Part shown: piece by piece, positions 10,160-35,912 of the stretch
Layout of the letters: each line of letters begins with the position of its first letter
Numbering within the stretch: the first letter of the stretch is position 1
NCBI GenBank assembly: GCA_964493625.1
Contig: CAZBOU010000008.1
Location: 3,561-67,560, forward strand
Source: an uncultured Caldisericota bacterium
GTDB taxonomy: Bacteria > Caldisericota > Caldisericia > UBA6126
Length of the DNA stretch: 64,000 nt
Direction of reading: 5' to 3'
The notes under the pieces: model-generated
What the model saw: the letters and a program-made list of their open reading frames with translations, nothing else
What the model was told of the DNA's origin: nothing
The model's database searches: none
Program-made: the position numbers and the translations under genes

Positions 10160-10193
10160 GTTGTTAATATAAAATTTTAACAACAATTTTTTT
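10160..10193 (+). terminator. rho-independent terminator after the hpf operon
   Basis: Stem GTTGTTAA (10160-10167) pairs with TTAACAAC (10177-10184) and is followed by a T-run at 10187-10193. Confidence 0.6.
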
Positions 10194-10219
10194 AGATTTG
10201 AGTATTTTTTTCGTATAAT
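10191..10219 (+). promoter_or_regulatory. candidate promoter at the left edge of the surface island
   Basis: TTTAGA (10191-10196), a 17-nt spacer, then TATAAT (10214-10219), about 30 nt upstream of ATG 10252. Confidence 0.3.
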
Positions 10220-10251: not shown

Positions 10252-11088
10252 ATGAAGAAATTTTCTGTTTTGCTTGTGCTATTATTGCTTGCTACACCTT
10301 TGCTCGCATACGGCTTAACGGTCGATCGTGACGAAGGCGGAATTCCATTGCAAACAGTATTTTATTCCCAAAAAGCCAAAGAAGCTACAGGTAAAACACC
10401 TGTTCGTTTAAAAGACATCCAAGAGATCCCTAGTGATTTCAGAATGCTTAATGAAGACAATCTTCCTCACAACGAGGATCCATTTTTCCCTGAACCAGAT
10501 GGTTTTAAAGGTACGGTAGTTGAAATTGATACTACTCGTAACATTATTAAGATTGCTGATGTTCGTTACTACAACAACTACAGAAATGCATATGATTTTG
10601 CTGAGTTCTATACCATTGTATTCAATGAAATGACCGGGTTCATTATTGATGGAGAACCTTTTCCTACTGCAAATCACTTGACTATTGGATCCCCCATAAC
10701 AGCTGTAGGTGAGCCAGATTATGAAAACCAAATTCTGAACAACACCGTTGTTGTATTTCAAGGGTCTATTTATCAGCAAGAAGAACAAAGAAAAAAAGTG
10801 ATGCCCTTTTCAGGTGTTATATTATCTATTGATCAAGAATCTCAAACTATGGTTGTCCACTGCTCAGAACTCGCCACAGAAATCACCGTTTCCATTATTG
10901 AAGGCACTTGCTTCCAACAATTTGAAATGAACAACGAGGGAGAAAGAGTACTTGTAATTCTTGACAATCCTTCTCATGGATTTCCCCCTGAAATAAAAGA
11001 ACACATTCAATGTGACTTTGTTGGTGAAATGCATTATCCTTCTTACGATACTATTGCACATAGTGTCATCATTACTGAGAACAACTGA
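10252..11088 (+). CDS. hypothetical secreted protein with two similar beta-barrel-like modules
   Basis: Signal peptide MKKFSVLLVLLLLATPLLAYG and a GAGGTGAGG RBS. There are two internal modules, FKGTVVEIDTTRNIIKI... and FSGVILSIDQESQTMVV.... I recognised no catalytic motif. Confidence 0.6.
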   Translation: MKKFSVLLVLLLLATPLLAYGLTVDRDEGGIPLQTVFYSQKAKEATGKTPVRLKDIQEIPSDFRMLNEDNLPHNEDPFFPEPDGFKGTVVEIDTTRNIIKIADVRYYNNYRNAYDFAEFYTIVFNEMTGFIIDGEPFPTANHLTIGSPITAVGEPDYENQILNNTVVVFQGSIYQQEEQRKKVMPFSGVILSIDQESQTMVVHCSELATEITVSIIEGTCFQQFEMNNEGERVLVILDNPSHGFPPEIKEHIQCDFVGEMHYPSYDTIAHSVIITENN

Positions 11089-11102: not shown

Positions 11103-14100
11103 ATGAAATTAACAAAAAAAGTATTTTCTTTGTTCATATGTCTGATACTCAGTTCAGCATTTTTTTCTTTTTCTTTTACAAACCGAGTACAGGCAACTAA
11201 TAAAATTAAATGGGATAATATTACTCCCAAATCACCTCCATTAACCATTACAGATGGTAGCGCTGACTACAATTCTGGATATAACTATGCTTGGGCTGGC
11301 TATCAACTCCATCTTATGACTTCCTTTGCTGATCTAGTAGAAACTAAACCAGATGGTTCAAAAGTTATTCACTACTTTCAGTTTATACCATCTTCTTCTT
11401 ATGGTGATGGCTATTATATGCAGTATGGGCGTACCTATTATTACCAAAAAGGTGCTGTGGTACACTGGGATTCCGAAACCGAAGTGTGGGAGAAGATTAA
11501 TCCTTCTTTTTTTGGTGATTACTGGGCGGCATACAGTGGTGGGTTCACTGTCGTAGAAAGTCCCTACATTGATGCTGATGGTAGTATCTGGAATGGACGT
11601 CTTTTATTGCATACAACTCGAGATTTTCACCAGACTTACTATTATTATGGTGCATATGATTCCGAAGGGCATCTATATGCAAGAACATATCGACCTGATT
11701 ATGTTGGGAGGTATTATCCTGGGAAAACATGCGTTTTACGATGGGATGGCGCAGATAACTGGACTGATATGTGGGACCAATCTGGCGATAACGGGCATGT
11801 TGTACCTGGTCCCAATAATGCCGGATCCTATCAAGATGCCAAAGGTACCTCCAGCGGGAAAACTTACATTACATACTACGATGGTAGCGTTTATATAGCT
11901 GCCTTTAAAGATCGGTATTGCCACACCTATAACGATCCATCCTGTTCCTATTACTACAGCTCTCCTTACTGGGATTTAAAAATCTATCAGTATACTGGAT
12001 CACTCGATGCTTTATTAAATAGCCCTGCACCTCCTCAAGCTTGGACAGAAGTTTGGTCATATCCCTATGGTAGTCGTAGTTATTCCTACGGACCACCCTC
12101 TATCTACGAATTTAAAGTTCTTAACGATCGCTTTTTCTTGTCTACTTCCACTGAGAAATATAATGACTATGCCTATCAATCTATGAGCAACGGTGGGTAT
12201 TATTATGTTTCCCAAGACAATACCCCCTCCACGTTAACTCGAGGCACATTAAAAACACCTCCTCCTGCGAGAATTGGCACCATTGGCGATCTTCCCCTTA
12301 CGGGTGGTTGGGAATTTCCTCTTGAGTATAATGGGACCACCTACACTGCTGTTTTTACTTCATCTACCCCTTTTTACTATTGCTATAGTTATTCACCTAC
12401 CCAAAGTTATGCTTACAATGGGTCATATTATAATTTTTATGTAAATGCATCTTCTTACGACCCTAACCATACATATCGTGTTAATAAGCGTGCATATTCC
12501 AATTCAACTTGCAAGTTTAAAGGTACCATATCCGGAAGCAGAATTTATTTGTCCGCAATCGCATATTTAAACAACACCAACTACGATATTGAATCAATTA
12601 TTCCTGCCAATTATGGGAGTTCTACACGAACACAGCTTAATGATGCCAATTTTGGAACTTGTGGAGAAATACCTATTACAGGGGGTTACTCTTTCCCCAT
12701 CACATATGGAGGTACTACGTATACAGCTCAGTGGAATACTTCAACAAAATTCTTTTATTGTTATGGTTACAACAATACTCGTACCTATGCATATGAAAAT
12801 ACTTTTTACAGAACCTATGTGTTCAACAGAAACCTTTCTTCATACGACCCAAATTATACCTATATGAATTATCGGCGAGGTTTAACCAATCAAACGATTG
12901 CTTGGAAAGGGACCATATCCGGTACTACAATTAATTTAACTCATGTTGGTTGGCCCCGGAACACAAAATATTGTGACGATGTAACACTGCAGCGAATGGA
13001 AGTTCCATTTGAAGTAGGTTCTCCTCCCTCAACTTTTGAGTTTTTTAAAGGGTATGTTTATTCAGGATTCTATAACAATTCGAGTTTAGTTAGAACGAAT
13101 GACTTTTCTTTTGCTAATTTATCGAATATGAATACATGGAATGATTGCGGAACCATCAATGACCCAGGTGCTTCTCCGTCTAGGCCTATGACGGGCGCCA
13201 TACTAGCACTGCAAAAAACGACCGGAAAAGACGAATATGGGGATACGGTAGACACAAAAATGTTTATCGCAAGTAGTTATATGCATGGAGGCGAAAGCCC
13301 ATATGCCTATCAATACTACGGTACCGTTCCACTATATTCTACGGAAGGGGAAGATGTTGGAGGAGATCCAGACACGGTACCTTTAAAATTTACTCTCGAA
13401 GAAGATGAATGGAGAGAAGATAAGAGTTTCCCATCACCTAATTTTCAAAATTCTATCTATGGTGTATATGATTTGTATGACTCTAGTATGGGTTTAATTG
13501 CTCAATTTAGTATTTATAAACTCCCCAACCAACGTTATTATTACCATAGAGACTCAGAACACCATTTTAGAAAATTTATGGTTTATAATGCACCCCCTTC
13601 TTGTGACATTACCCAAGATCCAGACCCATATGTTAATGAACGGGGTACATTTACTTCAGGGGTTATTACCTTTGTACCTACAGGAGGTTTTGGAGCTGGC
13701 GATGTGAAGATATGGATGGACCTTCCGGAGAATATTTATGTACCTAATCAGGATAGCGGGGGAAGTCCTATCAATCAGCAATTTTTAAGCCCTCGGATTC
13801 CGATGGATGGTCTTGCATTAAGTATACCGTTAACCATAAAATCAACCGGTTCAGCTGTTGCTGATATGTACACCTCTGATCCTCAATGTGCTATTCATAT
13901 ACTAGACTTTACTACCGGAATTGAAGTCGTTGAATATTTCCATCTTAATGTAATTCCACCTAAACCAGGTTTTAGTGTTGATGCTAGTCCAACGACGTTT
14001 ACCTTATTCCAAGGAGAGTGTCCGTCTACAGAATGTTGTGAAGATCATTGCAAGCAAATTGATTTAGACTTGTTCGCTAGAAACGGTTTTGAAGACAATG

Positions 14101-15284
14101 TACTTATCGGAACCTATTGGACTGATCCTCCTGCGAATCATCCAGAGGGAGCTTCTGTTGAATGGGTTCGTAACACTTTCGTATACGATGTGTATGATAC
14201 TGTTGGTACTAGTTTTTCGTCTTTAGCTGAAGTGCGTGTGCGACCTGATATGGGAACGCGTTATTCAATAAAAGTTCGTGTTTCACCAGATACATTACCC
14301 GGGGTATATAAGTTTTGCATCATGTTTTTATCCGGTAGCATTAAACGACAAGTTTTTTGTACTATGAAAGTTCTTCCGCCAAGGCCGGCGATTGATGTAA
14401 ATCCAGCAGATGGTATTGGAAACTTTTCTATGCAGGTTTATACAAAAGAAGTAATTCCAGGCGGATCTGTAAACTACCGTCTGAAAATTGAAAGCAAAGC
14501 TGGTTTTTCGGGAAAAGTGACACTTTCTTTACGAAATCTACCTGATCAAGTTTACATTGATAATTATTCAGGATATGAGGGTATTGAGGCAGAAGTTCCA
14601 GTTCCTGGCTATAATTTAAATATTGTAGAGATCTCACCTACCTTAGATGCTTTTGCAAATGTTCGACTCCAGACTACTCCCTATACCATCAATCCTTATC
14701 CTCCCACAAACCTTGCCGTAAACTCAGTGAACCAAAACTTGAATATTATTTCTTGGGATGCTTCTCGAAGAGGTTCAAGACCTATAGGTGGATACGAAGT
14801 GTGGAGATCTCTCACTCGGTATATTGATGCTGCTAATCGCATTGCCATCGTCAATTCACCCAACACTTCCTATGAAGATGCCGATGTGGAGCCCAACACT
14901 CCGTACTACTATTTTGTACGTGCTTTCGACAACGATACTCCCGCTAATTTCTCTACGTATGCAACCTCAGGTAGAGTTGGCGAAGCTGCTTCTGTAACCA
15001 TTGTTGATGACGAACTGGATCAGGTTATGGCAACCGCCGATAAAATGGGTACTATTCCAGGCTTTTATACCTTACAAGTCATCGGTAATGGGGTAGGGGT
15101 TGGTCCTGGAAATGTCCCCACCAATCCATCCGCCGTTACCTATCTTGGCTTGCATGTATATAGGCAAGATCTCAACTTGAAAACGCCATTTTTGGATGTT
15201 TGGGGAGCCCTGGCTCTGTTATTCGGAATGATGCTTGTTGCATGGCAGTTTGTATTCCGTAAAAAAGAAGAACAAACGTTCTAA
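11103..15284 (+). CDS. 1393-aa Tyr-rich secreted surface protein with Fn3 domain and C-terminal sorting-type signal
   Basis: Signal peptide MKLTKKVFSLFICLILSSAFFSFS. Blade-like W-containing segments and YYY/YYYY runs suggest a propeller. It also has a roughly 115-120-aa tandem repeat, beta-sandwich modules and an Fn3 (14700-14955: PPTNLAVNSV...YEVWRS...YYYFVRAFD). The extreme C-terminus is TPFLDVW-GALALLFGMMLVAWQFVF-RKKEEQTF. Confidence 0.85.
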   Translation: MKLTKKVFSLFICLILSSAFFSFSFTNRVQATNKIKWDNITPKSPPLTITDGSADYNSGYNYAWAGYQLHLMTSFADLVETKPDGSKVIHYFQFIPSSSYGDGYYMQYGRTYYYQKGAVVHWDSETEVWEKINPSFFGDYWAAYSGGFTVVESPYIDADGSIWNGRLLLHTTRDFHQTYYYYGAYDSEGHLYARTYRPDYVGRYYPGKTCVLRWDGADNWTDMWDQSGDNGHVVPGPNNAGSYQDAKGTSSGKTYITYYDGSVYIAAFKDRYCHTYNDPSCSYYYSSPYWDLKIYQYTGSLDALLNSPAPPQAWTEVWSYPYGSRSYSYGPPSIYEFKVLNDRFFLSTSTEKYNDYAYQSMSNGGYYYVSQDNTPSTLTRGTLKTPPPARIGTIGDLPLTGGWEFPLEYNGTTYTAVFTSSTPFYYCYSYSPTQSYAYNGSYYNFYVNASSYDPNHTYRVNKRAYSNSTCKFKGTISGSRIYLSAIAYLNNTNYDIESIIPANYGSSTRTQLNDANFGTCGEIPITGGYSFPITYGGTTYTAQWNTSTKFFYCYGYNNTRTYAYENTFYRTYVFNRNLSSYDPNYTYMNYRRGLTNQTIAWKGTISGTTINLTHVGWPRNTKYCDDVTLQRMEVPFEVGSPPSTFEFFKGYVYSGFYNNSSLVRTNDFSFANLSNMNTWNDCGTINDPGASPSRPMTGAILALQKTTGKDEYGDTVDTKMFIASSYMHGGESPYAYQYYGTVPLYSTEGEDVGGDPDTVPLKFTLEEDEWREDKSFPSPNFQNSIYGVYDLYDSSMGLIAQFSIYKLPNQRYYYHRDSEHHFRKFMVYNAPPSCDITQDPDPYVNERGTFTSGVITFVPTGGFGAGDVKIWMDLPENIYVPNQDSGGSPINQQFLSPRIPMDGLALSIPLTIKSTGSAVADMYTSDPQCAIHILDFTTGIEVVEYFHLNVIPPKPGFSVDASPTTFTLFQGECPSTECCEDHCKQIDLDLFARNGFEDNVLIGTYWTDPPANHPEGASVEWVRNTFVYDVYDTVGTSFSSLAEVRVRPDMGTRYSIKVRVSPDTLPGVYKFCIMFLSGSIKRQVFCTMKVLPPRPAIDVNPADGIGNFSMQVYTKEVIPGGSVNYRLKIESKAGFSGKVTLSLRNLPDQVYIDNYSGYEGIEAEVPVPGYNLNIVEISPTLDAFANVRLQTTPYTINPYPPTNLAVNSVNQNLNIISWDASRRGSRPIGGYEVWRSLTRYIDAANRIAIVNSPNTSYEDADVEPNTPYYYFVRAFDNDTPANFSTYATSGRVGEAASVTIVDDELDQVMATADKMGTIPGFYTLQVIGNGVGVGPGNVPTNPSAVTYLGLHVYRQDLNLKTPFLDVWGALALLFGMMLVAWQFVFRKKEEQTF
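12276..12960 (+). repeat. protein-level tandem duplication inside the Tyr-rich protein
   Basis: R1 is GTIGDLPLTGGWEFPLEYNGTTYTAVFTSSTPFYYCYSYSPTQSYAYNGSYYNFYV..SSYDPNHTY...KGTISGSRIYL. R2 is GTCGEIPITGGYSFPITYGGTTYTAQWNTSTKFFYCYGYNNTRTYAYENTFYRTYV..SSYDPNYTY...KGTISGTTINL. The DNA copies have clearly diverged. Confidence 0.7.
15183..15281 (+). other. putative C-terminal protein-sorting signal (motif + TM helix + basic cluster)
   Basis: The last 33 codons encode TPFLDVWGALALLFGMMLVAWQFVFRKKEEQTF. The layout is tripartite like PEP-CTERM/PGF-CTERM/LPXTG signals but carries none of the named motifs. Confidence 0.55.
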
Positions 15285-15304
15285 TCAAGAACGAAAAATA
15301 AAAA

Positions 15305-15335
15305 AGAGGTCACCAAGCGTGGCCTCTTTTTTTTT
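15305..15335 (+). terminator. rho-independent terminator/attenuator between the substrate gene and the sortase-like gene
   Basis: AGAGGTCAC (15305-15313) pairs with GTGGCCTCT (15319-15327) with one G-U pair and a 5-nt loop. The T-run extends to 15335. The next ATG is at 15343. Confidence 0.65.
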
Positions 15336-15342
15336 AGACAAC

Positions 15343-15837
15343 ATGAAATCAAAAAAAGCACTTAAATACATTCTTATTTTTATCGGTTCTGCCTTACTAC
15401 TTCAATGGGTGCTACATCTGCCCTTTATTGTAGAGCCGTTCATGTATGTTACTACGAAATGTACTCTTCACCTTCTTCAACTTTTCGGATATTCTGTTAC
15501 CATGAATTATTTCCATATTATTGGTGCAATAGATATGGAAATCATCTATGAATGCACTGGAGTATACGGAATTATTATTCTAACGTCTGGGTTTTTGGCA
15601 TCGTGGCATCCATGGGAAGAAAAACTTTTGGCCATTGCATGGGGAATCGGTGTTGTTTTTGTTACCAACCAACTGCGTCTTTTGAGTATCTTTATCATTT
15701 CTTCTCAATGGCCTGAAGCATTTGAGTTTCTCCACTCGTATTTTTGGCAGTTTTTTCTCATATTCATTGTGTGTTTAGTCTATTATTTATGGATGCAAAA
15801 GATGGATGCGAAGTATACCGCCCTTCATGAAAAATAA
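15343..15837 (+). CDS. minimal exosortase/archaeosortase-family protein (putative transpeptidase)
   Basis: 164-aa polytopic membrane protein. It has an ordered Cys motif (MEIIYECTGVYGIIIL), Arg motif (VTNQLRLLSIFI) and His (EFLHSYFWQFF), as in the exosortase/archaeosortase family. The track's 15235 start overlaps the upstream gene and crosses the terminator, so I used ATG 15343. Confidence 0.65.
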   Translation: MKSKKALKYILIFIGSALLLQWVLHLPFIVEPFMYVTTKCTLHLLQLFGYSVTMNYFHIIGAIDMEIIYECTGVYGIIILTSGFLASWHPWEEKLLAIAWGIGVVFVTNQLRLLSIFIISSQWPEAFEFLHSYFWQFFLIFIVCLVYYLWMQKMDAKYTALHEK

Positions 15838-16315
15838 AAAATCTACATCCATTCTTGTATTTGTTTTGATTTTTAGTGTATCTTTAACTGTTGCCTATTT
15901 TTTATGGTATCCAGTATCTTTTTATTACGCTTGGTTCCGTCTAAAATCTGCGTATATTCTTTTGAACCTCTTTGGAATCTACCCAACTTTCAGCATTAGC
16001 GGTATCCAAAGTAGTCAAGGAGAGATGTTTGCGTTTCTTCCCTATATCGCTCTTATGCTGGCTACCTATAAAAAAAAGATATGCACGCACATAAAAGAGA
16101 TCGGGATTACATTTGTAGCGATCGTACTAATAGAAATAATAGGACGATTTTTAGAAAAATACGCCGGCATGTATCCAAAGAATTCCTTCCTATCAATGCT
16201 GGCTATCTTTTTTCTTGGAACAGCAAGAGTTGCTTTGCCATTTTTATCATGGTTGATTTCTTTATACAGAGAGAAAAAGCCCTTTTCACACTTATTTTCT
16301 TCTGAACCAGAATAG
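15827..16315 (+). CDS. polytopic membrane protein, apparent Cys-less paralog of the sortase-like protein
   Basis: 162 aa beginning MKNKKSTS (compare MKSKKALK). LLNLFGIYPTFS parallels LLQLFGYSVTMN, and the segment aligned to YECTG reads FAFLPY. The start overlaps the upstream stop by 11 nt in an A-rich stretch. Confidence 0.5.
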   Translation: MKNKKSTSILVFVLIFSVSLTVAYFLWYPVSFYYAWFRLKSAYILLNLFGIYPTFSISGIQSSQGEMFAFLPYIALMLATYKKKICTHIKEIGITFVAIVLIEIIGRFLEKYAGMYPKNSFLSMLAIFFLGTARVALPFLSWLISLYREKKPFSHLFSSEPE

Positions 16316-16374
16316 GGCTATTTCGGTATTTCTTTTAGTTAGAAGAACTCCTGATTTGTCGAAAGGTGGCAAAA

Positions 16375-19300
16375 ATGAAAAAATTACTACATATACTTTG
16401 TGCAATTTTCGTTTCTTTCACGATGTTTCATGTGGGGTTGATGCAATCACCAACCACGCAAGCAAATACAAACGTAAAGGATGCAATTTTTGCGGCCTTA
16501 CAATGGGTCCCTGTTGGGACTAGTCGTGATGGCACACAATTGCGCAATAGTGCATTGTTTCCATGGCAAAGAGGAAGTGAAGATTTATGGGGAAATCGTC
16601 AGTATCTAATGCCCTCTGCAGGAGCACCTAGGCCTGCCACCTCGGCAACAAAGTCAACCCCAGTGTACTATACAGAAATCTATTTTGATGTGATTGCTGC
16701 TGGTGGAAGATCCACAGAAGCAAATCATTACTATGTTGTCATGGATGATTCTCAACAGATATGGTTGGATCAAGATGGACGGTTTCAAGATGCTAGACAA
16801 AGTGATCAACCTACAACCAACTGCAGAACTTCTTCCGGTAGAGTTGACCCCAGCTCTGCAAACAACACACTTGGACCGTATCGCGTTGGAGATTATCTTC
16901 ATATAGAAAACAATAAAGGGTATTTATTTACTCCTTCGGGAGCCATAGAACCTATTGAATATAGCAACACAGATTATTCGGGAAGAGTTTTTCAAATTGG
17001 TCAAGCTCTTTTGGGTAACGAAGAAAACCACCCTGTTTTGTTGGTGTCGGAAGTGTTGCAAGCTTCTTGCGATACCTATACGTATAATATCTCTGTGGAA
17101 AGTGACCTTTGGATGGGGACAAATCCAGCTGTGACATCGGCACGATTGTTTTCTCATAGTGGCGATGTACCAGAAGTAGCTCAATTGATTCAAAAAAGCA
17201 CTGTTCTTGATCCATCTGGCAGGGAATTTTTCGCTCCTGCAACAACATTTCATAATATTCGATTGAAATACCGTGAATACATTGGCGTTGAAATCTGGAA
17301 GGATAACGGCGTAAATGTGAATGTATTTGGCGGAAATACTCGCTCCAATAATTTATCCGACGACTACAAGGCAGGGGAAACGTGCGAAGAATTTCTTGGC
17401 ATGAAGCAAGGTTCTTCCGATACAGATGCCTATTTACCGCTACTCCCTATTCCAGTAACCGATCGTTTTTATTCTTCTACTAGCTCTAGTCGCTATGGCT
17501 GCCAAGGTCCAATATATCGTGATTTTGATGATTCCCGAACGGTTAGCCCAGGGGATTTACGAATCACTTCGATCCATGTGAATATGGGCGAAACATTGAT
17601 TGATTATGCTGCAGGTACCACTGTAGCTGAAGGGGATTCAGATGTTGGATTTCCTCTACAAGACTTCATTGTAGAAGATTATTATGATCAGAATGAGAAT
17701 GGGGAATTTGATTCTCAAGACTTTATCTATAGAGATGTCGATGGTAATGATAGAGTTTCGAGTGGAGATATACGTGTAACACAAGTGTCGTATCGAGGAA
17801 CAACATACGACTGCGGTAGTACCGTACAAATAGGAGATGTTTGGTTGTTTGAAAACCCTGTAACAGGGATTACGATGGGGAAAAATGGCAACTTCCGTAG
17901 CATGGACATGGAAGTTATTCCCGGAGAAATCGACTTAAATGTCCGTGTAACACCTGCTTTTCGAGTGGAACAAACGTCTACTGTGACGGTAGCCATTCAA
18001 CCGCCACTAGAAGCAAATGAAAAAGCCGTTATTTTGATTCGATCTGTTGACGGGGGAGACTCAATTCGAGAGGTAAATGCAGGAGTCCGAGAGTATACTT
18101 TTACCTATACCCCCTGGGAAGGGACTTGTAGCCCTTTAGGGAAGCAAGTGCCAATTACTATCGAGTTATACCGCGGTCAAAATTTTACAGATGTGAATCA
18201 GGGACCAAAGGATGGGAATTACGGCTATTGGAAGGTAGACACTCCAAGGGCTGTGCAGTTCCTTGAAAACAAGTATGATTGCCGCATGTTTGATTCAATA
18301 TCGGTGCTTCCAGAATTAATAGAATTTCGCACGAACATTTCTTGTTTAAGCAATATCTCTTTTCGATATCCGAACTTAGTTTTAAAAATGTTTGATGCCG
18401 ATAACAAATCTGACGTGAATGATCCGAATGGAATGGCTATTTCCTCCACAGCGAGTCGAAACATTCTTGCAAATTACAATGCTACAGGATCGGGTATTCG
18501 ATATATGTTTACAGCTATTGATGGCATGAGTAATAAGTACATTGTTCAGGTGAATAGTGACAATACCTATTTGTTGTGGAAGTGGATAGACAATCCCTCG
18601 CCTACACCTGGAAAAGGGTATTACGGTGCTTTGGACTTTGAAGATGAAGTGTCAGGACCTTACGATTCTGCCAATGGACAAGCTCTTTATGGAGGTTCTT
18701 TAGAAGATGTCGACTGTTCAGAAGATAAAATTGAATGTAGAACTTGTGAGTTATCAGGACTTCCTCCTCTAGGAAAAATCACCAAAGGAGATACTTTCGG
18801 TATCTTTGACGGTACTTTAGGGGAAGTTTTAAATGACGGAGTCTGGGCTTTTGTCACTCCATACGGGAAAGGCTTGATAGGCAACGATGGTGGAGAATTT
18901 CCTGTGTGCTTATGGCCTCGAGAAAACAACAATGACGTGTCTGTTCGTGTATTCACAACGCATGCAATGTACGATTACAATTCGACCATTTCTCATCCTC
19001 CTTACTTTGTAACAGGAGGAGGAGATGGAATTGACTATTGCGGGATTGCTTTGCTAGGATGGAAGAGTTCTGACCCCAATCCACCCCCTGATCCAGATCC
19101 TCCAAGTCCTAAGCCACCAGATGATGGAGGTAGAAATGATGGCATTGCATTTTCTGAATTCGTCGCCATTGATCATTCATTGCAGTATTCTGAATTTCGT
19201 TATTCTTCTTCTATTCAACCCGATTACGATCCTGTACTGCAGCATATGATCCGAGATTTTCGATCCTATCCTGGTGGGCAAACCCACATGGGCCGATCTG

Positions 19301-22300
19301 GCCCTATCCTTCGAGAGGGTAGAAACGCTTGTCCTGCCAATTGGGAAAACCAATTTGTGAAGCTTGGTACAGAATTTTTCCCCATGACAGATTATGGGAT
19401 TTATTTCGTACTGCGTGATTCGCATGACGGAAGCCTTCTTTCCTTTGAATCATCGAATCGAAATCACCGCATTACTCAAATTGAGATCAAAGGACCCTTT
19501 TTAACTCCTTATTTCCCCTTGAGCAATGTTCGATATGGTGGAAGCAGTAATGTACCCCTTACCTACAATTGGAGTGGTGAAGTTATCATTGATAGCTCCA
19601 ACTACAAAGAATATGAGTTAACTGGAGCAGATTGGACTCGAACTACCAATCCAGGCCTTCGAGAAAGTGTTCGCTACGGACGTGCAAACAGTGTTTTAGA
19701 ATATTCACGAAGATTGAATTATACAGGTATACCAAAGGTCATCGTTATAGATGAGCTCATTCCTGTACAATATGGGAAAATATCTATTCGTGTTCATTTG
19801 GCCGATGGACGCATTGGAGACTATTATGACTGCTGCGATGTTCCCATGGAAGGAATCCCGGTGCATGCTCTTGAAATAGGAGACTATGCAGGAGGCATTG
19901 AGTATGGCAAAGACTGCGAGTTTACTGCAACAATCAAAGAGCACTCCTCTATGCAAAGTGTACGCCAAGTTAATGATGCTGTTGTATTTATTTGGCAAGA
20001 CCGAGGTGTAAAAACTCGATACAATCAAGAAACCTTAGAAGGAGCTGGAGATGGATGGGTAACGATGGCCCCAGAGTCTTCTGAGAATTCTGGGTATTCC
20101 ACAGCGTACTCTTCTTCTGATGATCTGAACGATGACGGCAAGATCTCTTTCAATGATTTTGAGACCGAAATTGTTGGAAGTTATGATCTTTCTACCAATA
20201 CTTGGGCCGGAGGAATGATTGATGCAAGGACATTCCAAAGAAATCAAGGAAAGTACAAGTTTGTTCTATCTGAGAAGAATAGATGTATTATTGATACGGT
20301 AGGAATGGATTTTAATAAAAATGGAGTTATTGAAGACCACGAAATCCTTCCTGTATACATCACTGCCTATAAATATGGAGATGACAACAACAGCCGAGGA
20401 TTTGGCCCTTTGTACCCTAATCCTATGAATCACAAGTACTATTCACATGCTGTATATCTATCGGGACAAAACATTGCACCAGTAGGATACAGCACTGGAC
20501 CACAAAAATCGTATGAGATTGATCTTTCTCCCTCTATTTTAACTGCAGGGGTTTCACCTGAAAGCGCTTTTCAAGGTCAACCATTCACGGTTACTGTAAA
20601 AAAATCGGATGGATCCCCAGTGGACTTAACAGACAACGGTTCTTTGAGTACAGAAGAAGTGGCTGCATTGTTCTTTGACGATACTCCCTTCAATGTACCG
20701 GACTACTATTGGGTTCGCACCAATTTGCAAAATACATCTACTGATGCTGCAAACAATAGCGATTTGTTCAACAAAAAAATCATTCAATATGATTTTTCAG
20801 GAGCCAAAAAGGGTGTCTACATCTTCAAAAATTTTGTAGCCAATGATGCTGGGTCTTTCAAATTAAGAGTTATGAATAAAAGACGTAGTGATTTTGGCTC
20901 GGTGGATGTAAAGGTAGCCTTGCCTACTGTCGACTATATTGTTTCTCCGTCAGCACCAGAAGGACTCATCCCCGGAGAATTATATTCTGTTACAGCTACT
21001 ATAAAAGATGCTCTTGGCAATACGATTCGTGGAGCAGACGTTCACTATTTACCCTTTTCCGGATCCATAAATGAGCACTATGATCCTGTTTTTCTAGGGA
21101 TCGATCAAGACAATTCATCTAGAAAATGGGCGTCTAACTCTATGGCTTACAACATGTCCATTGACCTTGCTAAACGTGATCGAAATCAAGCAGGGTGGTT
21201 TGGTCCCGGAGCTATCTATAATAGCGCACATGATGGCTTGGTCCATATTCTTGACCGCAACAATGATAATATCGTAAACCATCAAGACAGTTTGTTGGAC
21301 GTGAACGGTCAAATGAAATTTGTTATACCTGCCTGTGGCAACGTTTTTTATGGAGGTTTTGTAGGATGCAATCAGCTATTAAAACAAGCTGGAGTGAGTG
21401 ATGTTGCTGGCGGCCAACCAGAAGACCATGGCGGAAGCCTATCAAGGCGATACAGGCCTGACGGAACATTTCATATGGATTGGTTTGCTTTTAGTCAAGA
21501 TAAGGTTGTGGGCAAAGCACTAGAAATTTCTGCTTATGATCAAAACAAAGAACCCCTTTCTACGGTGGGATTTGATCTAGGCAACTACGACCTTATTTCA
21601 GGAGCAAAAAACAACGTATTATTGAAGATAAAAGAAGCTGGTTCTGGACTAAAAGGACTTCGCTTTTACGAAAATAATCAAAGAATTGCTCAAGTAGATA
21701 TACAATCCACCGAGGATTTTATTGAAGTTGAACTGCAACCATCGAATCCCGGTGAAAGTACTATTGTAGTTCGTGCTGTATATCAGTTTGACACGATGGA
21801 TACTCCTTTTGAACAAACCTGCATGTCATTTGATGTTATTTCCGGGCTGAGTGTTTCGATTGTAGAAGGAGAATTCCTCTATTCTACAGAGCGATCAAAA
21901 GTTGTATTGAAAGTAAATCAAGCGTATAGTGATTCCTTAAAGGATACTCTTCTTGGCTTGAAAGGGCCTGGAGTAGAAGAATGGGAGCCTATTGACTCCA
22001 ATGGAACTTCACTGTTCTATTTCACTCCTCCCTACCCTGGTACTATTCAAATTTTGATTAAGGGTTCTCAAGTATTAACTCATGCACCTACGATTACAGT
22101 TTTTGATTCGCAACAACCACCCTATTTGCTAATCAAGGAATACCCAAGCCTTACTAGGAAGAGCACAATTACTCTTCATGGAGAAACACAAATAGGCTGT
22201 AGCGTGTTTTTCGACGAAAATGAAATAGACGTGTCTTCTTCTGGTACGTTCTCGATTCCCATTGAGCTGGAAGAAGGGAAAAATGAATTTCTTGTTCGTG

Positions 22301-22983
22301 CTTTTAACCCAAAAGGAGTAAAAGCAGAAGAAAAAATCGTGATCTGGAAACGCACAAAGGGTCCTGATATTGAAGTAGATGCATTTCCCGAAACACCCCC
22401 AGAAAAGTTGGAATTGATGGTAACTGGAACCGTAACTCCCCCCGAAGCAGAAGTTATTGTGAATGGCTACGAAGCAATAGTAGAAAGTGATGGAACATTC
22501 TCTTGCACAATACCCATCCAAACCGGTGAAAATGAAATTTATATCAAAGCCGTAGACAGTATTGGAAATACTTCAGAAATGACCCTTACGTATACTTTTA
22601 AAGAGACGACCGTCATTGTTTTAACGATTGGTAGCAAGGCAATGATGATTGATGGAAAAAGCCAAGAAATGGATGTGGCCCCCTTTATTCGTAATGGCCG
22701 CACGATGGTCCCCATACGAGCAATCGCAGAAGCTTTTGGCGCAGAGGTAGAATGGAAACCTTCTACCGAAACCGTAGAAATACGGTTAGGAGACTTGTTC
22801 ATTTCCATGCAAATTGGGAATCCAGTAGCGATGATAGGCAAGAAGGTTACTTCTTTAGACAGTCCGCCCGTTATTGAAAATGGTCGTACGTTTGTACCCT
22901 TACGTTTCATTGCAGAAAGTTTCGGAGCAGAAGTTGAGTGGGTTGCTGAAACAAGAACCATCATTATTCATTACAATAGGTAG
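16375..22983 (+). CDS. 2202-aa secreted surface protein of unknown function with Ig-like + CuAO-N-like C-terminal cassette
   Basis: AAAGGTGG RBS and ATG 16375 give signal peptide MKKLLHILCAIFVSFTMFHVGLMQSPTTQA. It contains duplicated YRD-D...VS-GD-R-T modules, several EF-hand-like loops and a Pro-rich linker SSDPNPPPDPDPPSPKPPDD. Two Ig-like modules and two copper-amine-oxidase-N-like repeats follow (22610-22980: APFIRNGRTMVPIRAIAEAFGAEVEW / PPVIENGRTFVPLRFIAESFGAEVEW). Confidence 0.85.
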   Translation: MKKLLHILCAIFVSFTMFHVGLMQSPTTQANTNVKDAIFAALQWVPVGTSRDGTQLRNSALFPWQRGSEDLWGNRQYLMPSAGAPRPATSATKSTPVYYTEIYFDVIAAGGRSTEANHYYVVMDDSQQIWLDQDGRFQDARQSDQPTTNCRTSSGRVDPSSANNTLGPYRVGDYLHIENNKGYLFTPSGAIEPIEYSNTDYSGRVFQIGQALLGNEENHPVLLVSEVLQASCDTYTYNISVESDLWMGTNPAVTSARLFSHSGDVPEVAQLIQKSTVLDPSGREFFAPATTFHNIRLKYREYIGVEIWKDNGVNVNVFGGNTRSNNLSDDYKAGETCEEFLGMKQGSSDTDAYLPLLPIPVTDRFYSSTSSSRYGCQGPIYRDFDDSRTVSPGDLRITSIHVNMGETLIDYAAGTTVAEGDSDVGFPLQDFIVEDYYDQNENGEFDSQDFIYRDVDGNDRVSSGDIRVTQVSYRGTTYDCGSTVQIGDVWLFENPVTGITMGKNGNFRSMDMEVIPGEIDLNVRVTPAFRVEQTSTVTVAIQPPLEANEKAVILIRSVDGGDSIREVNAGVREYTFTYTPWEGTCSPLGKQVPITIELYRGQNFTDVNQGPKDGNYGYWKVDTPRAVQFLENKYDCRMFDSISVLPELIEFRTNISCLSNISFRYPNLVLKMFDADNKSDVNDPNGMAISSTASRNILANYNATGSGIRYMFTAIDGMSNKYIVQVNSDNTYLLWKWIDNPSPTPGKGYYGALDFEDEVSGPYDSANGQALYGGSLEDVDCSEDKIECRTCELSGLPPLGKITKGDTFGIFDGTLGEVLNDGVWAFVTPYGKGLIGNDGGEFPVCLWPRENNNDVSVRVFTTHAMYDYNSTISHPPYFVTGGGDGIDYCGIALLGWKSSDPNPPPDPDPPSPKPPDDGGRNDGIAFSEFVAIDHSLQYSEFRYSSSIQPDYDPVLQHMIRDFRSYPGGQTHMGRSGPILREGRNACPANWENQFVKLGTEFFPMTDYGIYFVLRDSHDGSLLSFESSNRNHRITQIEIKGPFLTPYFPLSNVRYGGSSNVPLTYNWSGEVIIDSSNYKEYELTGADWTRTTNPGLRESVRYGRANSVLEYSRRLNYTGIPKVIVIDELIPVQYGKISIRVHLADGRIGDYYDCCDVPMEGIPVHALEIGDYAGGIEYGKDCEFTATIKEHSSMQSVRQVNDAVVFIWQDRGVKTRYNQETLEGAGDGWVTMAPESSENSGYSTAYSSSDDLNDDGKISFNDFETEIVGSYDLSTNTWAGGMIDARTFQRNQGKYKFVLSEKNRCIIDTVGMDFNKNGVIEDHEILPVYITAYKYGDDNNSRGFGPLYPNPMNHKYYSHAVYLSGQNIAPVGYSTGPQKSYEIDLSPSILTAGVSPESAFQGQPFTVTVKKSDGSPVDLTDNGSLSTEEVAALFFDDTPFNVPDYYWVRTNLQNTSTDAANNSDLFNKKIIQYDFSGAKKGVYIFKNFVANDAGSFKLRVMNKRRSDFGSVDVKVALPTVDYIVSPSAPEGLIPGELYSVTATIKDALGNTIRGADVHYLPFSGSINEHYDPVFLGIDQDNSSRKWASNSMAYNMSIDLAKRDRNQAGWFGPGAIYNSAHDGLVHILDRNNDNIVNHQDSLLDVNGQMKFVIPACGNVFYGGFVGCNQLLKQAGVSDVAGGQPEDHGGSLSRRYRPDGTFHMDWFAFSQDKVVGKALEISAYDQNKEPLSTVGFDLGNYDLISGAKNNVLLKIKEAGSGLKGLRFYENNQRIAQVDIQSTEDFIEVELQPSNPGESTIVVRAVYQFDTMDTPFEQTCMSFDVISGLSVSIVEGEFLYSTERSKVVLKVNQAYSDSLKDTLLGLKGPGVEEWEPIDSNGTSLFYFTPPYPGTIQILIKGSQVLTHAPTITVFDSQQPPYLLIKEYPSLTRKSTITLHGETQIGCSVFFDENEIDVSSSGTFSIPIELEEGKNEFLVRAFNPKGVKAEEKIVIWKRTKGPDIEVDAFPETPPEKLELMVTGTVTPPEAEVIVNGYEAIVESDGTFSCTIPIQTGENEIYIKAVDSIGNTSEMTLTYTFKETTVIVLTIGSKAMMIDGKSQEMDVAPFIRNGRTMVPIRAIAEAFGAEVEWKPSTETVEIRLGDLFISMQIGNPVAMIGKKVTSLDSPPVIENGRTFVPLRFIAESFGAEVEWVAETRTIIIHYNR

Positions 22984-23095: not shown

Positions 23096-26000
23096 TTACA
23101 AACGCTCCCCAAAGTTATACGATAGTATGATTAGGTCAATACCATCCACTTTTCCGTCATCGTTAAAATCGCACCTGGCATCGTAGTTTGCATCTTCTTT
23201 GTTTGTGCCAAAGGCAGCTGCAAATAGTGTTAGGTCGTGAATATCTACAACTCCATCTCCATTCACATCTCCGGCTAGATAGTTTGTTACAAGGACATCA
23301 ACACCAGAACCAATCAAGGGGTACTCTTCTAACGCCTCAGTTTTGGCAGATGCTTTTTGAATATTCAAAGTAGAAGTGCCTTTGTTGATCCCAATAAAGG
23401 ACAACGTAATCAGCATTCCTGTACCTTGTAAAGAAAAGCCAGTGTTCATCATTATTTTGATCACAACTTTGCCATTGTCTTTGTCAATTTCTTGCAACAA
23501 AGTATGCGCATCGGCTGTATTTTGAAGAAGCATTGAAGATGCTTTTACATCAAGACATTCTACCAAAACAGGATCGTATTGAATTTCAAATTCGATATAA
23601 GATAGATTTTTTGCGTCTTTTAATTGAATATCAATAGGGGTTGGTTTTTTAATCTTAATCTGCGGATATATGGGGTGAAAATGCAACGAGGCGTATCCTT
23701 CTTGAATCGATAGGACAGAAAGTTTGAATTGTGATGTTCTTGTTTTTCCTCCTCCAATACCCTGGATGCTTATGATGTGCTCTTGACTTGGTAGAGATGG
23801 GCTTGTATGGAAAGTAATGGTGACAGGTTTTCCAAAATCCTTTTTTTCAATGATAGATGGTTCAATAGAATGCGTGATACCCTCCGGTACGTTTCCGACC
23901 GTTAAGGTTACAGGGGCTGTCCATTTTAAACTAAAACTAGGATTGAATGTCATCTCGACAGAAGTACCTGCTGTTGCGTGCAAGGTAAAATTTGGTTCAA
24001 GGTTCAAAGAAAAATCACCATCGGCTAGTATTATTTCAAGAGTAACAGAGATTCTTTTTGTGGTTTTATTCGCTTTTCCCAGTACAATAAATTTTAATTC
24101 TGTAGGGGTCATAGTTTGTGTTGTTTGGATATGAAGAACAGATTTTTGTCCTTCGATAATCATTTGTTTCGAAAATGAAAACTGTAGATTTGATGGAAGC
24201 TGATCAACAGATAGATCTACATTTTCACTGAATCCATCAAATCCAGAAAAAGTGATTTCATAATCTGCTGATTCACCTGCATACACTTGCTGGTAGGTAG
24301 GGGAAACCTTAAGAGCATAATCACCCTGCATTGTTTCGTATACAGTGATATGGTATACCAATTCAGCATGTTTGCCACCACCTTGGCCAAGGATTATCAA
24401 CTCAAACTCTCCGGGTTCCACAATAGGACTAAAATGCATGCTTGCAGTAGTTGTACCTGGACAGGGTGCAATAGGGGGGTTAAAAGTGACTTCTACACCT
24501 TCGGGTGGTGTTCCTTTGAGGCCCATGGTAACAGGGGCATTAAAGCCTGCCGTTCTAGAAAGAGAAATATCAGAACGAACCGTTGTTCCAGCATTTACCT
24601 CAAATTCTGTGTTAATGGAAGAAAGAGAAAATTCTCCAGGAGCAATGTTTTGAACACGCAGTTGAATGCGAGTTGTTTTCTTTATCGTTCCACTAAACGC
24701 TATTACAAGAAGGCTATGGCTACCAGTAGGAGTTTCCGAGGTGGTTTGAATTTTAAGAGTTGTTTCTCCTGGGGCAGTATTTAACTGTGAAGGAGAGAAT
24801 TCATAATGTGTTCCTGCTGGCACATTTTCGAGCTGAAATTCCACTGGTTTTTTCAAGGGAATATCATTGATGACATTGATTTTTATGTCTACACTACCAC
24901 CTTGAAAAAGTGTGGTTGACTGTGTATCTGGGATCAATGTAAAACCGACACTCGAGGAGAAGCAATACAATTTACCAGAGTTGGTTCCAACGGCAACTAC
25001 CCCTCTACCCACTGCAGGGCTACTTTGTATAGGAGCATCCAAAGTTTTTTCCCAGACCAATCTTCCTGCTTCGTCAAGCATGGTTAGTTTTTTGTCCAAA
25101 CCGGCTACTAAAATTTTATCTCCTGCAATAACAGGGTTTGTTGTAACAGCTCCTCCGCCTACAGAGTAGGACCATTTTTCTTCTTTTGTTTCTGTATCAA
25201 TTTTACGAAGCTCGGCCATTTTTAAATTTTGATTCTTTTTTACCCCAATAAAGTAAATGTGCTTTTCATCTTCATCTAGAGCGGGAGTATTGGGCACTTC
25301 GTCGTAGGTTAAAATTTGCCATTTCATTGTCATGGAAGGATTCACACGATAGAAAAATAAGTTCTCACCACCTCCACCAATGTAGATGCCATCTTTACCA
25401 ATCGTTGGAGAGGATTTAAAGCTGGCACGAAAACCGTTAAATTTTCCAAAAGGCAAACCATTTACAGACGAGAGAGAGTACATGTAGTTGTCATATGTAG
25501 AAACATATACACGGTTTTTGTAATAGGCTGGAGAGGTGTATATGGGGGCATCATATTGATTCATCCAACGTTGTTCTCCACCTTCAATAGACAAGGCGTA
25601 AAACTCTCCTTTTTCAGTACCAAAATAGACTTTATCATCACCTATACAAGCTGTAGACCGGATACTTGATCCTACATTTCGGTACCATATCGGTCTGCCT
25701 GTGTTTCTGTTAAAGCAGAAGAAGATTCCATCCAGTGTTCCAACAAACAGTTTTTCTTCATGAATTCTAGGGGAACATGTCCATGGAGGTGGATCGTCCT
25801 CCTCCTCTTCCCCGATAGGTGGTAGGATGCGATTGGATTGACCCAAATAGTAATCCCACAATTTTTCTCCCGTAGTTCGGTCTATGGCGTATAGCTTCGT
25901 AGAGTGTCGGCCATCTGGCAAAGCTTTTTCTCCTACAAAATAAATCACGTTGCCAATGATGGCGGGTGTGGATCGAATGGCATCGCTGTCAGATTGGTAC

Positions 26001-30900: not shown

Positions 30901-31015
30901 GAAGAATATATTGGTTTTGATTTTCAATGCCAAGTGTATAATTAGTTTGGAATGGCAACGAAGGCAGGAAAATCATGCAACAAATAAGGATGATAAAACT
31001 CTGTTTCAGCCACAT
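27920..31015 (-). CDS. 1031-aa secreted SpoIID/LytB-domain protein with SPOR-like, cohesin-like, Fn3/Ig-like and CuAO-N-like modules
   Basis: GGGAGGTGG RBS. It has a SPOR-like segment (ARIGPFYSEKEASFLLSSM) and SpoIID motifs (YLKGVVPAEISANWHMEALKSQAITARTFAL, YDVTDDTYCQVYLG, HSCSGGMTESNANAW). A cohesin-like module lies at about 28960-29385 (FGVTFYLYFAPS...GSGTLLSFQLETLSIGSGSIYI), followed by an Ig-like module. Two CuAO-N-like repeats lie at 27923-28400 (KPFTTKGRTMIPLRFIAESFGANVDW / EPFTIPPGRTVVPLRFIAETFHASIEW). Its stop is 3 nt from the start of the PQQ-propeller gene. Confidence 0.85.
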   Translation of the reverse strand: MWLKQSFIILICCMIFLPSLPFQTNYTLGIENQNQYILRVRVKHSSQRISLQSSDNLLVYHPFSDAWLSIGSPSASPFIVSLCRPTSPVYYVQLPLAKNPLETVQSIRHSFFSSSSLSFYISLDQKQLSARIGPFYSEKEASFLLSSMASSMSDGKVVTIEKNTPLCLLDLNSGIYIQKTISDQTSTFSTLLQISPQSRDGSIQVGNYSYYGSIWIHSPNNIDLSAVNHIDMETYLKGVVPAEISANWHMEALKSQAITARTFALKRAQAARKNTTSYYDVTDDTYCQVYLGTRQFKSTNQAVEETKDLVLTWNQQLITSPFHSCSGGMTESNANAWNSSPYPYLQPVDSPGEEISPHYSWYKHFTKENFHSQLQLLLKEKENIAVNTIEKCELQTFENSHRVRFVNVFTEKGIVQITGLQFQYYFNLKSSWFGIFDDSSGNRQSVPPPLMRTNLTNTQTQSHVYLYGKGWGHGVGLPQYGAQAAALRGEPFSVIVTRYYRDVSIASMQPFYQQPSAALSQLDSVASSTKDFSPTEFETYSSNLARLSFSSQEIDIQSPHPKIEIGSHPTIDIAIETGSDVFGVTFYLYFAPSITDIQKETCKIGSFLSAGNVHVNSIIKKESTQDGVPYLHVALSREGKENGGVSGSGTLLSFQLETLSIGSGSIYIDNATLLDAKLNPIRVETSPLEFTVFKTDRDPPTAEIVSHPDPISNQQMVQFRWTGEDIQTKTEDLFYSYQLNIEPWSPFSAETSKVLHITEDGEHIFRVKARDSFGNVTPEPASYVFTIDTKPPKLLFDPFPDIIYTDFIDVSGSSEYNAKLTINNTPIPIGTDGSFSHRLPLHIGSNTLHAEAVDLAGNKTTIEYTLERKVFEPVFIWLQIGNEKAIVNQESVLIDCKPFTTKGRTMIPLRFIAESFGANVDWYEDEQKISIQIFAPFTKKIDLWLHQKTALIDNKLEVTLDVEPFTIPPGRTVVPLRFIAETFHASIEWHPQDQSIEIVFPKKSSIFSLNMVQNWFEKSFNTIMDLFNGRG

Positions 31016-35892: not shown

Positions 35893-35912
35893 ATTCGTTG
35901 AAGGGGTTTTGT

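Follow-up and report, generated by a model that had tools for sequence, protein, structure and literature searches.

Exosortase-type protein sorting has been tested experimentally in few systems. For the family as a whole, both the question of a one-step transpeptidase reaction and the identity of the acceptor are unsettled (10.1101/2023.06.07.544157). Conserved Cys, Arg and His residues are suspected to form the catalytic triad in the exosortase/archaeosortase family, and systems of one enzyme and one target with adjacent genes are a described category (Haft preprint, 10.1101/2023.06.07.544157). In the ArtA/PGF-CTERM system of the Haloferax volcanii surface-layer (S-layer) glycoprotein, the best-studied functional analogue of the locus considered here, the tripartite tail of a large surface glycoprotein is removed by a Cys-dependent polytopic enzyme, coupled to lipid attachment (10.1101/2023.06.07.544157), and mutagenesis of conserved residues of ArtA has been carried out according to a source that cites this work. 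In Methylomirabilis lanthanidiphila the S-layer protein is of the IPTL-CTERM type, and no C-terminal tail was detected on its mature form (PMC8671808). No paper of the searchable literature mentions Caldisericota and exosortases together. Here we analyse a stretch of 64,000 nucleotides (nt) from an uncultured Caldisericota bacterium (assembly GCA_964493625.1, contig CAZBOU010000008.1, positions 3,561 to 67,560 of the forward strand; the window is this whole stretch), in which the gene of a 164-amino-acid (aa) membrane protein directly follows that of a 1393-aa secreted protein ending in a short hydrophobic tail. We consider it likely that this locus is a dedicated exosortase/archaeosortase-type sorting module, a divergent, single-substrate relative of the XrtH/IPTL-CTERM system.

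A minimal exosortase with the conserved catalytic columns

Investigation of the 164-aa protein with NCBIfam models revealed a match to the exosortase/archaeosortase signature TIGR04178 of 56.8 bits (cut-off 23) over residues 65-152, a significant result that bears out the family assignment made in a preliminary description of the window, for which no databases had been searched. Pfam family PF09721 (Exosortase_EpsH) is precomputed for an identical protein and our own Pfam scan gave nothing at E<=1; Pfam alone can miss minimal exosortases of this size. The motifs IIYECTGVYG, TNQLRLLS and EFLHSYF are present, and the Cys, Arg and His within them, proposed earlier as catalytic, all fall in the conserved columns of the family, the Cys being residue 71 and not 70 as first numbered (codons of these and all other features are given in Table 1). 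When the window protein was aligned with 60 relatives of 20-64% identity, Cys71 and Arg112 did not vary and conservation of Asn109 and His131 was at least 90%; within the Caldisericota clade all of these residues are invariant.

When 1.84 billion cluster representatives were searched exhaustively with HMMER, 2379 relatives of the enzyme were detected at E<=0.001; three further 50%-identity clusters lie below 1e-30 and a fourth at 1.6e-30, after which there is a drop to about 1e-19. Among the best matches listed, the relatives are mostly 145-235 aa long. Thus the statement that the enzyme is much shorter than typical family members holds in comparison with XrtA and ArtA, whereas members of the ArtB/XrtH/XrtM/XrtX wing are normally of this size, their profiles having 150-168 positions.

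The AlphaFold2 model of the enzyme (predicted local distance difference test, pLDDT, 96.7) is an all-helical membrane fold with one beta-hairpin at residues 53-66 and long, hydrophobic helices at 3-23, 27-47, 69-86, 91-122 and 124-163. Since both termini are Lys-rich, the simplest topology would place Cys71, Arg112 and His131 near the outer leaflet. Regarding solved relatives, the PDB profile search gave none at E<=10 and the PDB fold search nothing below E 0.5. Alternative starts at TTG 15235 and GTG 15319 were rejected, the former lying in the substrate tail and the latter inside the intergenic hairpin described below; the 164-aa form is the likely product because the orthologues align solely from ATG 15343. 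In the database the enzyme is 172 aa long (P0001), with an apparent GTG start within the 3' arm of the hairpin (15319-15345).

A conserved tail on the adjacent secreted protein

The last 33 residues of the 1393-aa protein read TPFLDVWG / ALALLFGMMLVAWQFVF / RKKEEQTF. They comprise a motif, one transmembrane (TM) helix and a basic C-terminus on a protein with a signal peptide, as read from the sequence, which are the features by which Haft defines a tripartite sorting signal, and the same architecture of a hydrophobic stretch and a Lys/Arg cluster is present in all orthologues. Both open reading frames (ORFs) and the tail architecture are as given in the preliminary description, and so is its statement that no other protein of the window has such a tail: the scan of the six-frame translation detected a single tail of the TPFLDVWG type.

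Related loci, here designated by L numbers, were gathered by exact-protein look-up, a scan of GTDB genomes and a metagenome scan; they amount to 389 kb in all, and coverage is 64 kb of the window genome and 12-20 kb per relative. Orthologues of the candidate substrate, of 1201-1275 aa, are present in all of them. Residues T1361, P1362 and W1367 are invariant in 8 orthologues of 29-69% overall identity, and the lineage consensus of the motif is TPx[FLM][DNS]xW[GT]. Close orthologues share 79-94% identity in the tail and 58-69% in the body, and distant orthologues 34-48% and 28-31%, respectively, so that the tail is more conserved than the body in the orthologues examined.

The tail-bearing gene lies directly 5' of the enzyme gene in 22 of the 22 loci readable on both sides, including L014, where solely the last 40 codons of the substrate gene survive at the contig end, and the gene order is maintained while the identity of the enzymes falls from 94% to 41%. 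This is the adjacency by which dedicated one-to-one systems are recognised (10.1101/2023.06.07.544157), and the claim that the enzyme gene immediately follows that of the giant tailed protein is thereby extended from the window to its relatives. A loose regular expression run over the 389 kb of related loci detected one tail per locus, always directly upstream of the enzyme, so that a tail lacking its enzyme, looked for there, was not encountered. A degenerate DNA pattern of the tail, strict in that it includes part of the TM helix, detected four loci in the metagenome collection, all of them substrate orthologues and followed by the enzyme wherever the contig allows. Neither the related loci nor the metagenome-wide scan with the strict pattern contained a second tail-bearing gene. 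At L011 (6215-9941) the substrate gene consists of two ORFs (496 and 634 aa) with tail and enzyme intact, which is a frameshift, a pseudogene or an assembly error. Judged from sequence, the upstream 1393-aa protein is supported as the best candidate substrate of the enzyme.

Relation to described sorting systems

The nominal top subfamily of the window enzyme is ArtB (TIGR04144; 64.9 bits, cut-off 150), followed by XrtH (TIGR04177; 61.9 bits, cut-off 86); ArtA scores 33.1 bits (cut-off 75), and there was no match to XrtA at E<=1. XrtH is the top subfamily for all four divergent syntenic orthologues, of which L020 (88.3 bits) and L024 (87.6 bits) pass the XrtH cut-off and L022 (64.3 bits) and L023 (66.5 bits) fail it. 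About 20 of the 61 sampled nearest relatives score at roughly the XrtH cut-off and none is near that of ArtB.

The tails escape the curated models. None of the native tails of any lineage reaches the cut-off of an NCBIfam C-terminal sorting model; the best match of the window tail is VPEID-CTERM (13 bits, cut-off 33), and the L020 tail has a weak match of 13.6 bits, which is noise level, to the XrtH-substrate model midcut_by_XrtH. The window tail has no PEP-CTERM, PGF-CTERM or LPXTG motif and matches no model of these, in agreement with what had been read from its sequence. The motif nevertheless resembles IPTLSEWG, the signature of IPTL-CTERM (TIGR04174), which is the signal cognate to exosortase H. 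P, L/F, W and G stand at the spacing of IPTLxxWG in all Caldisericota lineages; the first residue is Thr and the third is variable, and the curated model gives little credit for this. The likeness was probed against the model with synthetic consensus peptides, which are not natural sequences. The IPTL consensus scored 48-50 bits over the whole 27-position TIGR04174 model, a result by which it was validated as a probe, and with the consensus helix held constant the motifs scored 48.3 bits (IPTLSEWG), 33.1 (TPTFDTWG), 27.8 (WG only), 26.9 (TPFLDVWG) and 20.5 (no motif). TPTFDTWG, aligned to TIGR04174 positions 2-27, is thus about 5 bits above the WG-only control. The IPTL-CTERM model is dominated by a Leu/Ala/Arg-rich helix, and the AT-rich window lineage has no such helix. 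Our conclusion is that the pair stands at the edge of XrtH/IPTL-CTERM as a divergent relative and is not a member by the curated cut-offs.

With XrtH/IPTL-CTERM the locus shares an enzyme of about 160 aa with the Cys/Arg/His columns and a tripartite tail whose motif abuts the helix, whereas it differs in having Thr first instead of Ile or Val, a Phe/Met-rich helix, a Lys-rich basic cluster and apparently one adjacent substrate, and in belonging to the phylum Caldisericota. ArtB/VPXXXP-CTERM has the same minimal size, and two further modules described below (L025 and L027) lean to the ArtB type; however, ArtB is an archaeal family, the sixth motif position of the window tail is Val (in TPFLDV) where the second Pro should stand, and there was no match to VPXXXP-CTERM (TIGR04143). 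The ArtA picture may fit by analogy, given that the substrate is enriched in sequons and probably highly expressed, but ArtA has a 271-position model, a PGF motif, many substrates and a gene that is not beside the substrate gene; no lipid-attachment genes were identified at the window locus. XrtA/B PEP-CTERM systems belong to the same enzyme superfamily and have the same logic of motif, helix and basic cluster, but XrtA-type enzymes have about eight TM segments, extracellular polymeric substance (EPS) loci and many substrates and occur in diderm bacteria, and the window tail is without PEP. Sortase A/LPXTG offers an analogous outcome and analogous Cys/Arg/His chemistry on an unrelated fold, and LPXTG is set off from its helix by a spacer; the window tail has neither an LPXTG motif nor a match to TIGR01167.

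A membrane protein encoded after the enzyme

The gene following the enzyme, overlooked in the preliminary description, encodes a polytopic protein of about 162 aa and starts 11 nt inside the enzyme gene. It is present after the enzyme in every Caldisericota locus, usually overlapping the enzyme stop codon, and also 3' of the short exosortases in L025, L027 and L028. It has no Pfam or NCBIfam family and is named 'hypothetical protein' everywhere; the family has the motifs P-[FY]-[LI]-x-L-M-x-[AST] and P-F-x-x-W. An hhalign comparison of this partner with the exosortase alignment gave a probability of 70-75% and an E-value of about 3e-5 over 140 colinear columns, against less than 1% for reversed-sequence controls, and in the alignment no Cys or His stands opposite the catalytic Cys and His. 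The AlphaFold2 model of the partner (pLDDT 84) has helices at residues 2-48 and, after a loop, at 70-81, 85-115 and 120-148, in an order similar to that of the enzyme. A reasonable hypothesis is that the partner is a non-catalytic, Cys-less exosortase paralogue acting together with the enzyme.

A separate three-gene module was detected in a second Caldisericia lineage (L025, on a 1.06 Mb contig, and the same in L026). The VPxxxP-like motif of its tail scores 17.4 bits against a cut-off of 30, and its exosortase has ArtB as best subfamily (89 bits, cut-off 150). A further module is present in a metagenome-assembled genome (MAG) of a Nanoarchaeota archaeon (L027), with an exosortase scoring 103.6 bits against ArtB (cut-off 150) and a partner overlap of 11 nt. 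Close by in L027, the opposite strand carries a gene for an Rce1-like protease. We advance tentatively, as a proposal with a limited chance of being right, that a three-gene cassette of a tailed giant protein, a minimal exosortase and a dead paralogue as obligate partner is common to Caldisericota, a Nanoarchaeota archaeon and other lineages, and that it builds the main Caldisericota surface layer by an ArtA-like cut-and-anchor reaction. If the partner is a non-catalytic paralogue, it may explain how minimal exosortases work with so few helices.

A hairpin between the substrate and enzyme genes

Regarding the intergenic region, RNAfold gives -18.1 kcal/mol for the hairpin at 15300-15333 (z = -4.5), and none of 200 shuffled sequences was as stable, which confirms the earlier observation of a hairpin with a T-run between the two genes. 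The run of nine T (15327-15335) follows a G+C stem, its first bases pairing with the upstream A-run, and ends 7 nt before the enzyme ATG; a simple terminator scan missed the hairpin. Such a hairpin (-18 to -27 kcal/mol) recurs in each of the eight loci that make up the window's clade, with compensatory changes among the stems GAGGTCAC/GTGGCCTC, GGGGTCACC/GGTGACCCC, GAGGCCAC/GTGGCCTC and GGAGGTCACC/GGTGACCTCC, and each is followed by nine T and, 4-12 nt on, by the enzyme start codon. Each of these hairpins was folded on its own, since the MAFFT alignment had shifted the 5' arm by one column in L007 and L009. A hairpin followed by a T-run is likewise present 3' of the substrate gene in L023 and L025. 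There is no promoter room after the hairpin, and transcription of the enzyme gene would therefore depend on read-through or on a start inside the substrate gene, an arrangement that fits the production of much substrate and little enzyme.

Alternative readings

Several observations weigh against a dedicated module related to XrtH/IPTL-CTERM. The window enzyme is below the cut-off of every named subfamily, no native tail of any lineage matches IPTL-CTERM TIGR04174 (cut-off 20.5) at E<=10, and the window motif does no better in the swap than the WG-only control. The term dedicated is based on partial genomes, and further substrates may be encoded elsewhere. L028 (6001-7212 of a high-GC bacterial contig) encodes a short exosortase together with a homologue of the partner (hmmsearch 18.9 bits), but no tailed substrate is adjacent, an opposite-strand histidine kinase gene being present instead; because both genes occur there in this way, the enzyme-partner pair may be the conserved core. 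The topology of the enzyme is deduced from secondary structure and the positive-inside rule. Finally, L020, L022, L024 and L027 have 17-29 nt between the substrate and enzyme genes and no hairpin, so that the argument from stoichiometry is limited to some lineages and the hairpin is a lineage-specific tuning and not a defining part of the system.

The low subfamily scores and the missing TIGR04174 matches would also suit a new sorting class, in which the likeness to IPTLxxWG is coincidental and the enzyme is a subfamily of its own, equidistant from ArtB and XrtH. Consistent with this, the ArtB and XrtH scores of the window enzyme are both far below the cut-offs, its close clusters are separated from other relatives by the gap to 1e-19, WG is the sole contribution of the window motif in the swap test, and the L025 and L027 modules lean to ArtB/VPXXXP. 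Such a class is nevertheless unlikely in our estimate, since syntenic orthologues pass the XrtH cut-off and have XrtH as their top match, the IPTLxxWG spacing of P, L/F, W and G is preserved in all lineages, the L020 tail weakly matches midcut_by_XrtH, and the Leu/Ala/Arg-rich helix that dominates the IPTL-CTERM model is not expected from an AT-rich genome. The suggestion of a possibly new recognition motif in the preliminary description therefore holds in so far as the tail is unnamed and caught by no model, while the IPTLSEWG-like consensus and the L020 and L024 enzymes indicate that it is probably no new class.

The enzyme might instead be a general exosortase with several scattered substrates, of which the adjacent giant protein is one among many. 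Classical exosortase systems are one-to-many (10.1101/2023.06.07.544157), the genomes are covered to the extent given above, the strict metagenome pattern would not catch a paralogous tail whose helix differs, and in L028 the enzyme and partner genes have no substrate gene beside them. We regard a general exosortase as quite unlikely here, as at least seven other large secreted proteins of the window end in Cu_amine_oxidN1, dockerin or other domains and none is tailed, the loose motif search of 389 kb gave no second tail, and the adjacency is strict over deep divergence.

That the C-terminal helix is a permanent, uncleaved anchor, with the exosortase acting elsewhere or non-proteolytically in a shared envelope operon, is very improbable: the tail does fail all curated sorting-signal models and the cluster includes envelope proteins of about 280 aa and 2205 aa without a sorting tail, but a plain anchor would require neither an invariant T-P...W next to the helix nor stronger conservation of the tail than of the body, the enzyme fully retains its catalytic Cys, Arg and His, and the independent L025 and L027 modules put a tailed large protein directly before a short exosortase.

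Proposed mechanism and significance

In the preferred reading, that of a dedicated sorting module, the 1393-aa protein would be exported by Sec, and its C-terminal helix would retain it in the cytoplasmic membrane, RKK facing the cytoplasm. The exosortase, with Cys71, Arg112 and His131 near the outer leaflet, would recognise TPFLDVWG at the helix junction and cleave there via a Cys-acyl intermediate, and the mature protein would be transferred to an envelope acceptor (lipid or glycan) or released for surface-layer assembly. The product of the next gene would act as a non-catalytic membrane partner co-translated with the enzyme, and in the window's clade the hairpin would pass read-through transcripts alone to the enzyme, yielding much substrate and little enzyme. 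We infer cleavage, acceptor, topology, the role of the partner and the expression ratio from the arrangement of the locus.

The size of the substrate, its Tyr richness and sequons, the core-genome position, the strong terminator and the IPTL-CTERM S-layer precedent are consistent with a role as a major surface-layer component. Should the substrate be the main Caldisericota surface-layer protein, the locus would open a way into the envelope of a phylum from which very few members have been cultured. The locus is a clean pairing of one enzyme and one substrate with a tail missed by curated models, and it could serve as a starting point for models of tail, enzyme clade and partner and thereby improve annotation of a deep-branching phylum; the one-to-one arrangement also suits heterologous reconstitution of exosortase chemistry.

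Features of the substrate and of its surroundings

The giant substrate is secreted and Tyr-rich, as previously noted, with a Sec-type signal peptide read from the translation and a Tyr content of 9.1%, the values for eight other large window proteins being 3.4-4.8%. It was also said to be rich in N-x-S/T sequons; these are indeed enriched (22 vs 13.9 +/- 3.3 in shuffled sequences, p ~0.012), but the enrichment is modest. Pfam, NCBIfam and PDB profile searches of the body detected a fibronectin type III (fn3) domain alone, some 80 residues before the tail, which scores 24.4 bits in Pfam, just below the cut-off of 25; the orthologue profile matches the fn3 domains of titin and contactin in the PDB (E 3e-4). 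A tandem duplication of about 107 aa lies inside the substrate, with a Smith-Waterman score of 302 for the two copies against 41 +/- 8 for shuffles; self-BLASTP of the substrate did not report this internal repeat. The duplication probably explains the 120-190 extra aa of the window substrate relative to its relatives.

The gene cluster is kept in the order cdaA/ybbR, hpf, DUF4330, a gene of about 270 aa, substrate, enzyme, the partner of about 160 aa and a gene of about 2200 aa. The first conserved gene, for a secreted protein of about 279 aa, lies upstream of the substrate gene at a distance of 14 nt. Neither Pfam nor NCBIfam gave a match for it, and an orthologue of 264-284 aa is present at the same position in all related loci; its product may be a further component of the module or a co-assembled surface protein. 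The last, for a 2205-aa protein without a sorting tail, has an orthologue of 2187-2218 aa at the same position wherever a locus is long enough to include it.

Table 1. Coordinates of features in the window and of two further modules, with C-terminal tails of orthologues.
Feature	Locus	Position	Strand	Basis or remark
Promoter-like site	Window	10191-10219	+	10/12 consensus positions; consensus match only
Secreted protein, ~279 aa, first conserved cluster gene	Window	10252..11088	+	ORF map; ATG 10252, ORF opens at TTG 10228
Candidate substrate, 1393-aa secreted Tyr-rich protein	Window	11103..15284	+	ORF map, Pfam, composition
Sec-type signal peptide MKLTKKVFSLFICLILSSAFFSFSFTNRVQA	Window	11103..11195	+	Likely cut after VQA; read from translation: basic n-region, hydrophobic core, A-x-A-like site
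Tandem duplication in substrate, residues 389-494 and 515-623	Window	12267-12584 and 12645-12971	+	Smith-Waterman
Fibronectin type III domain, residues ~1198-1278	Window	14694..14936	+	Pfam and PDB profile
Tail signature motif TPFLDVWG, residues 1361-1368	Window	15183..15206	+	Abuts TM helix
Tail TM helix ALALLFGMMLVAWQFVF and basic cluster RKK	Window	15207..15266	+	Then five residues and stop, to 15284
Terminator-like hairpin: A-run, stem GAGGTCAC / GTGGCCTC, nine T	Window	15300..15335	+	RNAfold
Exosortase/archaeosortase family protein, 164 aa	Window	15343..15837	+	ORF map, NCBIfam
Codon of catalytic candidate Cys71	Window	15553-15555	+
Codon of catalytic candidate Arg112	Window	15676-15678	+
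Codon of catalytic candidate His131	Window	15733-15735	+
Polytopic membrane protein (partner), ~162 aa	Window	15827..16315	+	ORF map, conservation after enzyme
Secreted protein, 2205 aa, last conserved cluster gene	Window	16366..22983	+	Pfam: Glucodextran_B, then tandem Cu_amine_oxidN1 at end
PQQ beta-propeller protein, 1606 aa	Window	23096-27916	-	Dockerin C-terminus
Secreted protein, 1031 aa	Window	27920-31015	-	Ends in Cu_amine_oxidN1
Secreted protein, 288 aa	Window	35026-35892	+	Ends in Cu_amine_oxidN1
Secreted protein, 1592 aa	Window	35898-40676	+	Ends in Cu_amine_oxidN1
Module: 1337-aa subtilase-like protein, 201-aa exosortase, 158-aa partner	L025	3835-9087		Tail EVPTLSPIS, helix, RRK
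Module: 688-aa beta-helix protein, 173-aa exosortase, 158-aa partner	L027	3915-6988		Nanoarchaeota MAG; tail DVPGLSLSG, helix
Tail KTPFLDVWGALALLFGMMLVAWQFVFRKK	Window
Tail KTPFLNIWGILALLFGMMFVAWQFVFRKK	L012
Tail ATPFLNTWGWFIILLSMILAFYVVSKR	L014
Tail KTPTFDTWGMLLLLFGLFAFMFVQKRKR	L020
Tail KTPAFDTWGMLALLFGLFVFMFIQKRKR	L024
Tail KTPAFDFWGLLLLMVGLLGFVFVKTKKK	L023
Tail ATPTFSWWTAFLLLLSMVAAFIFVMEKRIKK	L022

Regarding the organism, the window has 87.5% DNA identity over 11.9 kb to one Caldisericota MAG, and the named close homologues are all from Caldisericia/Caldisericota MAGs. On these grounds an origin in Firmicutes was rejected; the preliminary description had called the genome Firmicutes-like, and its argument that sortase A/LPXTG would be expected instead falls because the genome is from Caldisericota. 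In one comparative study, Caldiserica were grouped with lineages discussed as having lost the outer membrane. The surroundings of the locus are those of a core chromosome, with secA, prfB, ileS, ybbR, cdaA, hpf, hflX, recN, dxs, gltX and a class A penicillin-binding protein.

Tandem Cu_amine_oxidN1 domains form the C-terminus of four secreted window proteins (2205, 1031, 288 and 1592 aa), in most cases after Glucodextran_B. Because Cu_amine_oxidN1, a dockerin and one exosortase tail were all seen in the window, surface proteins here have at least three types of C-terminal end.

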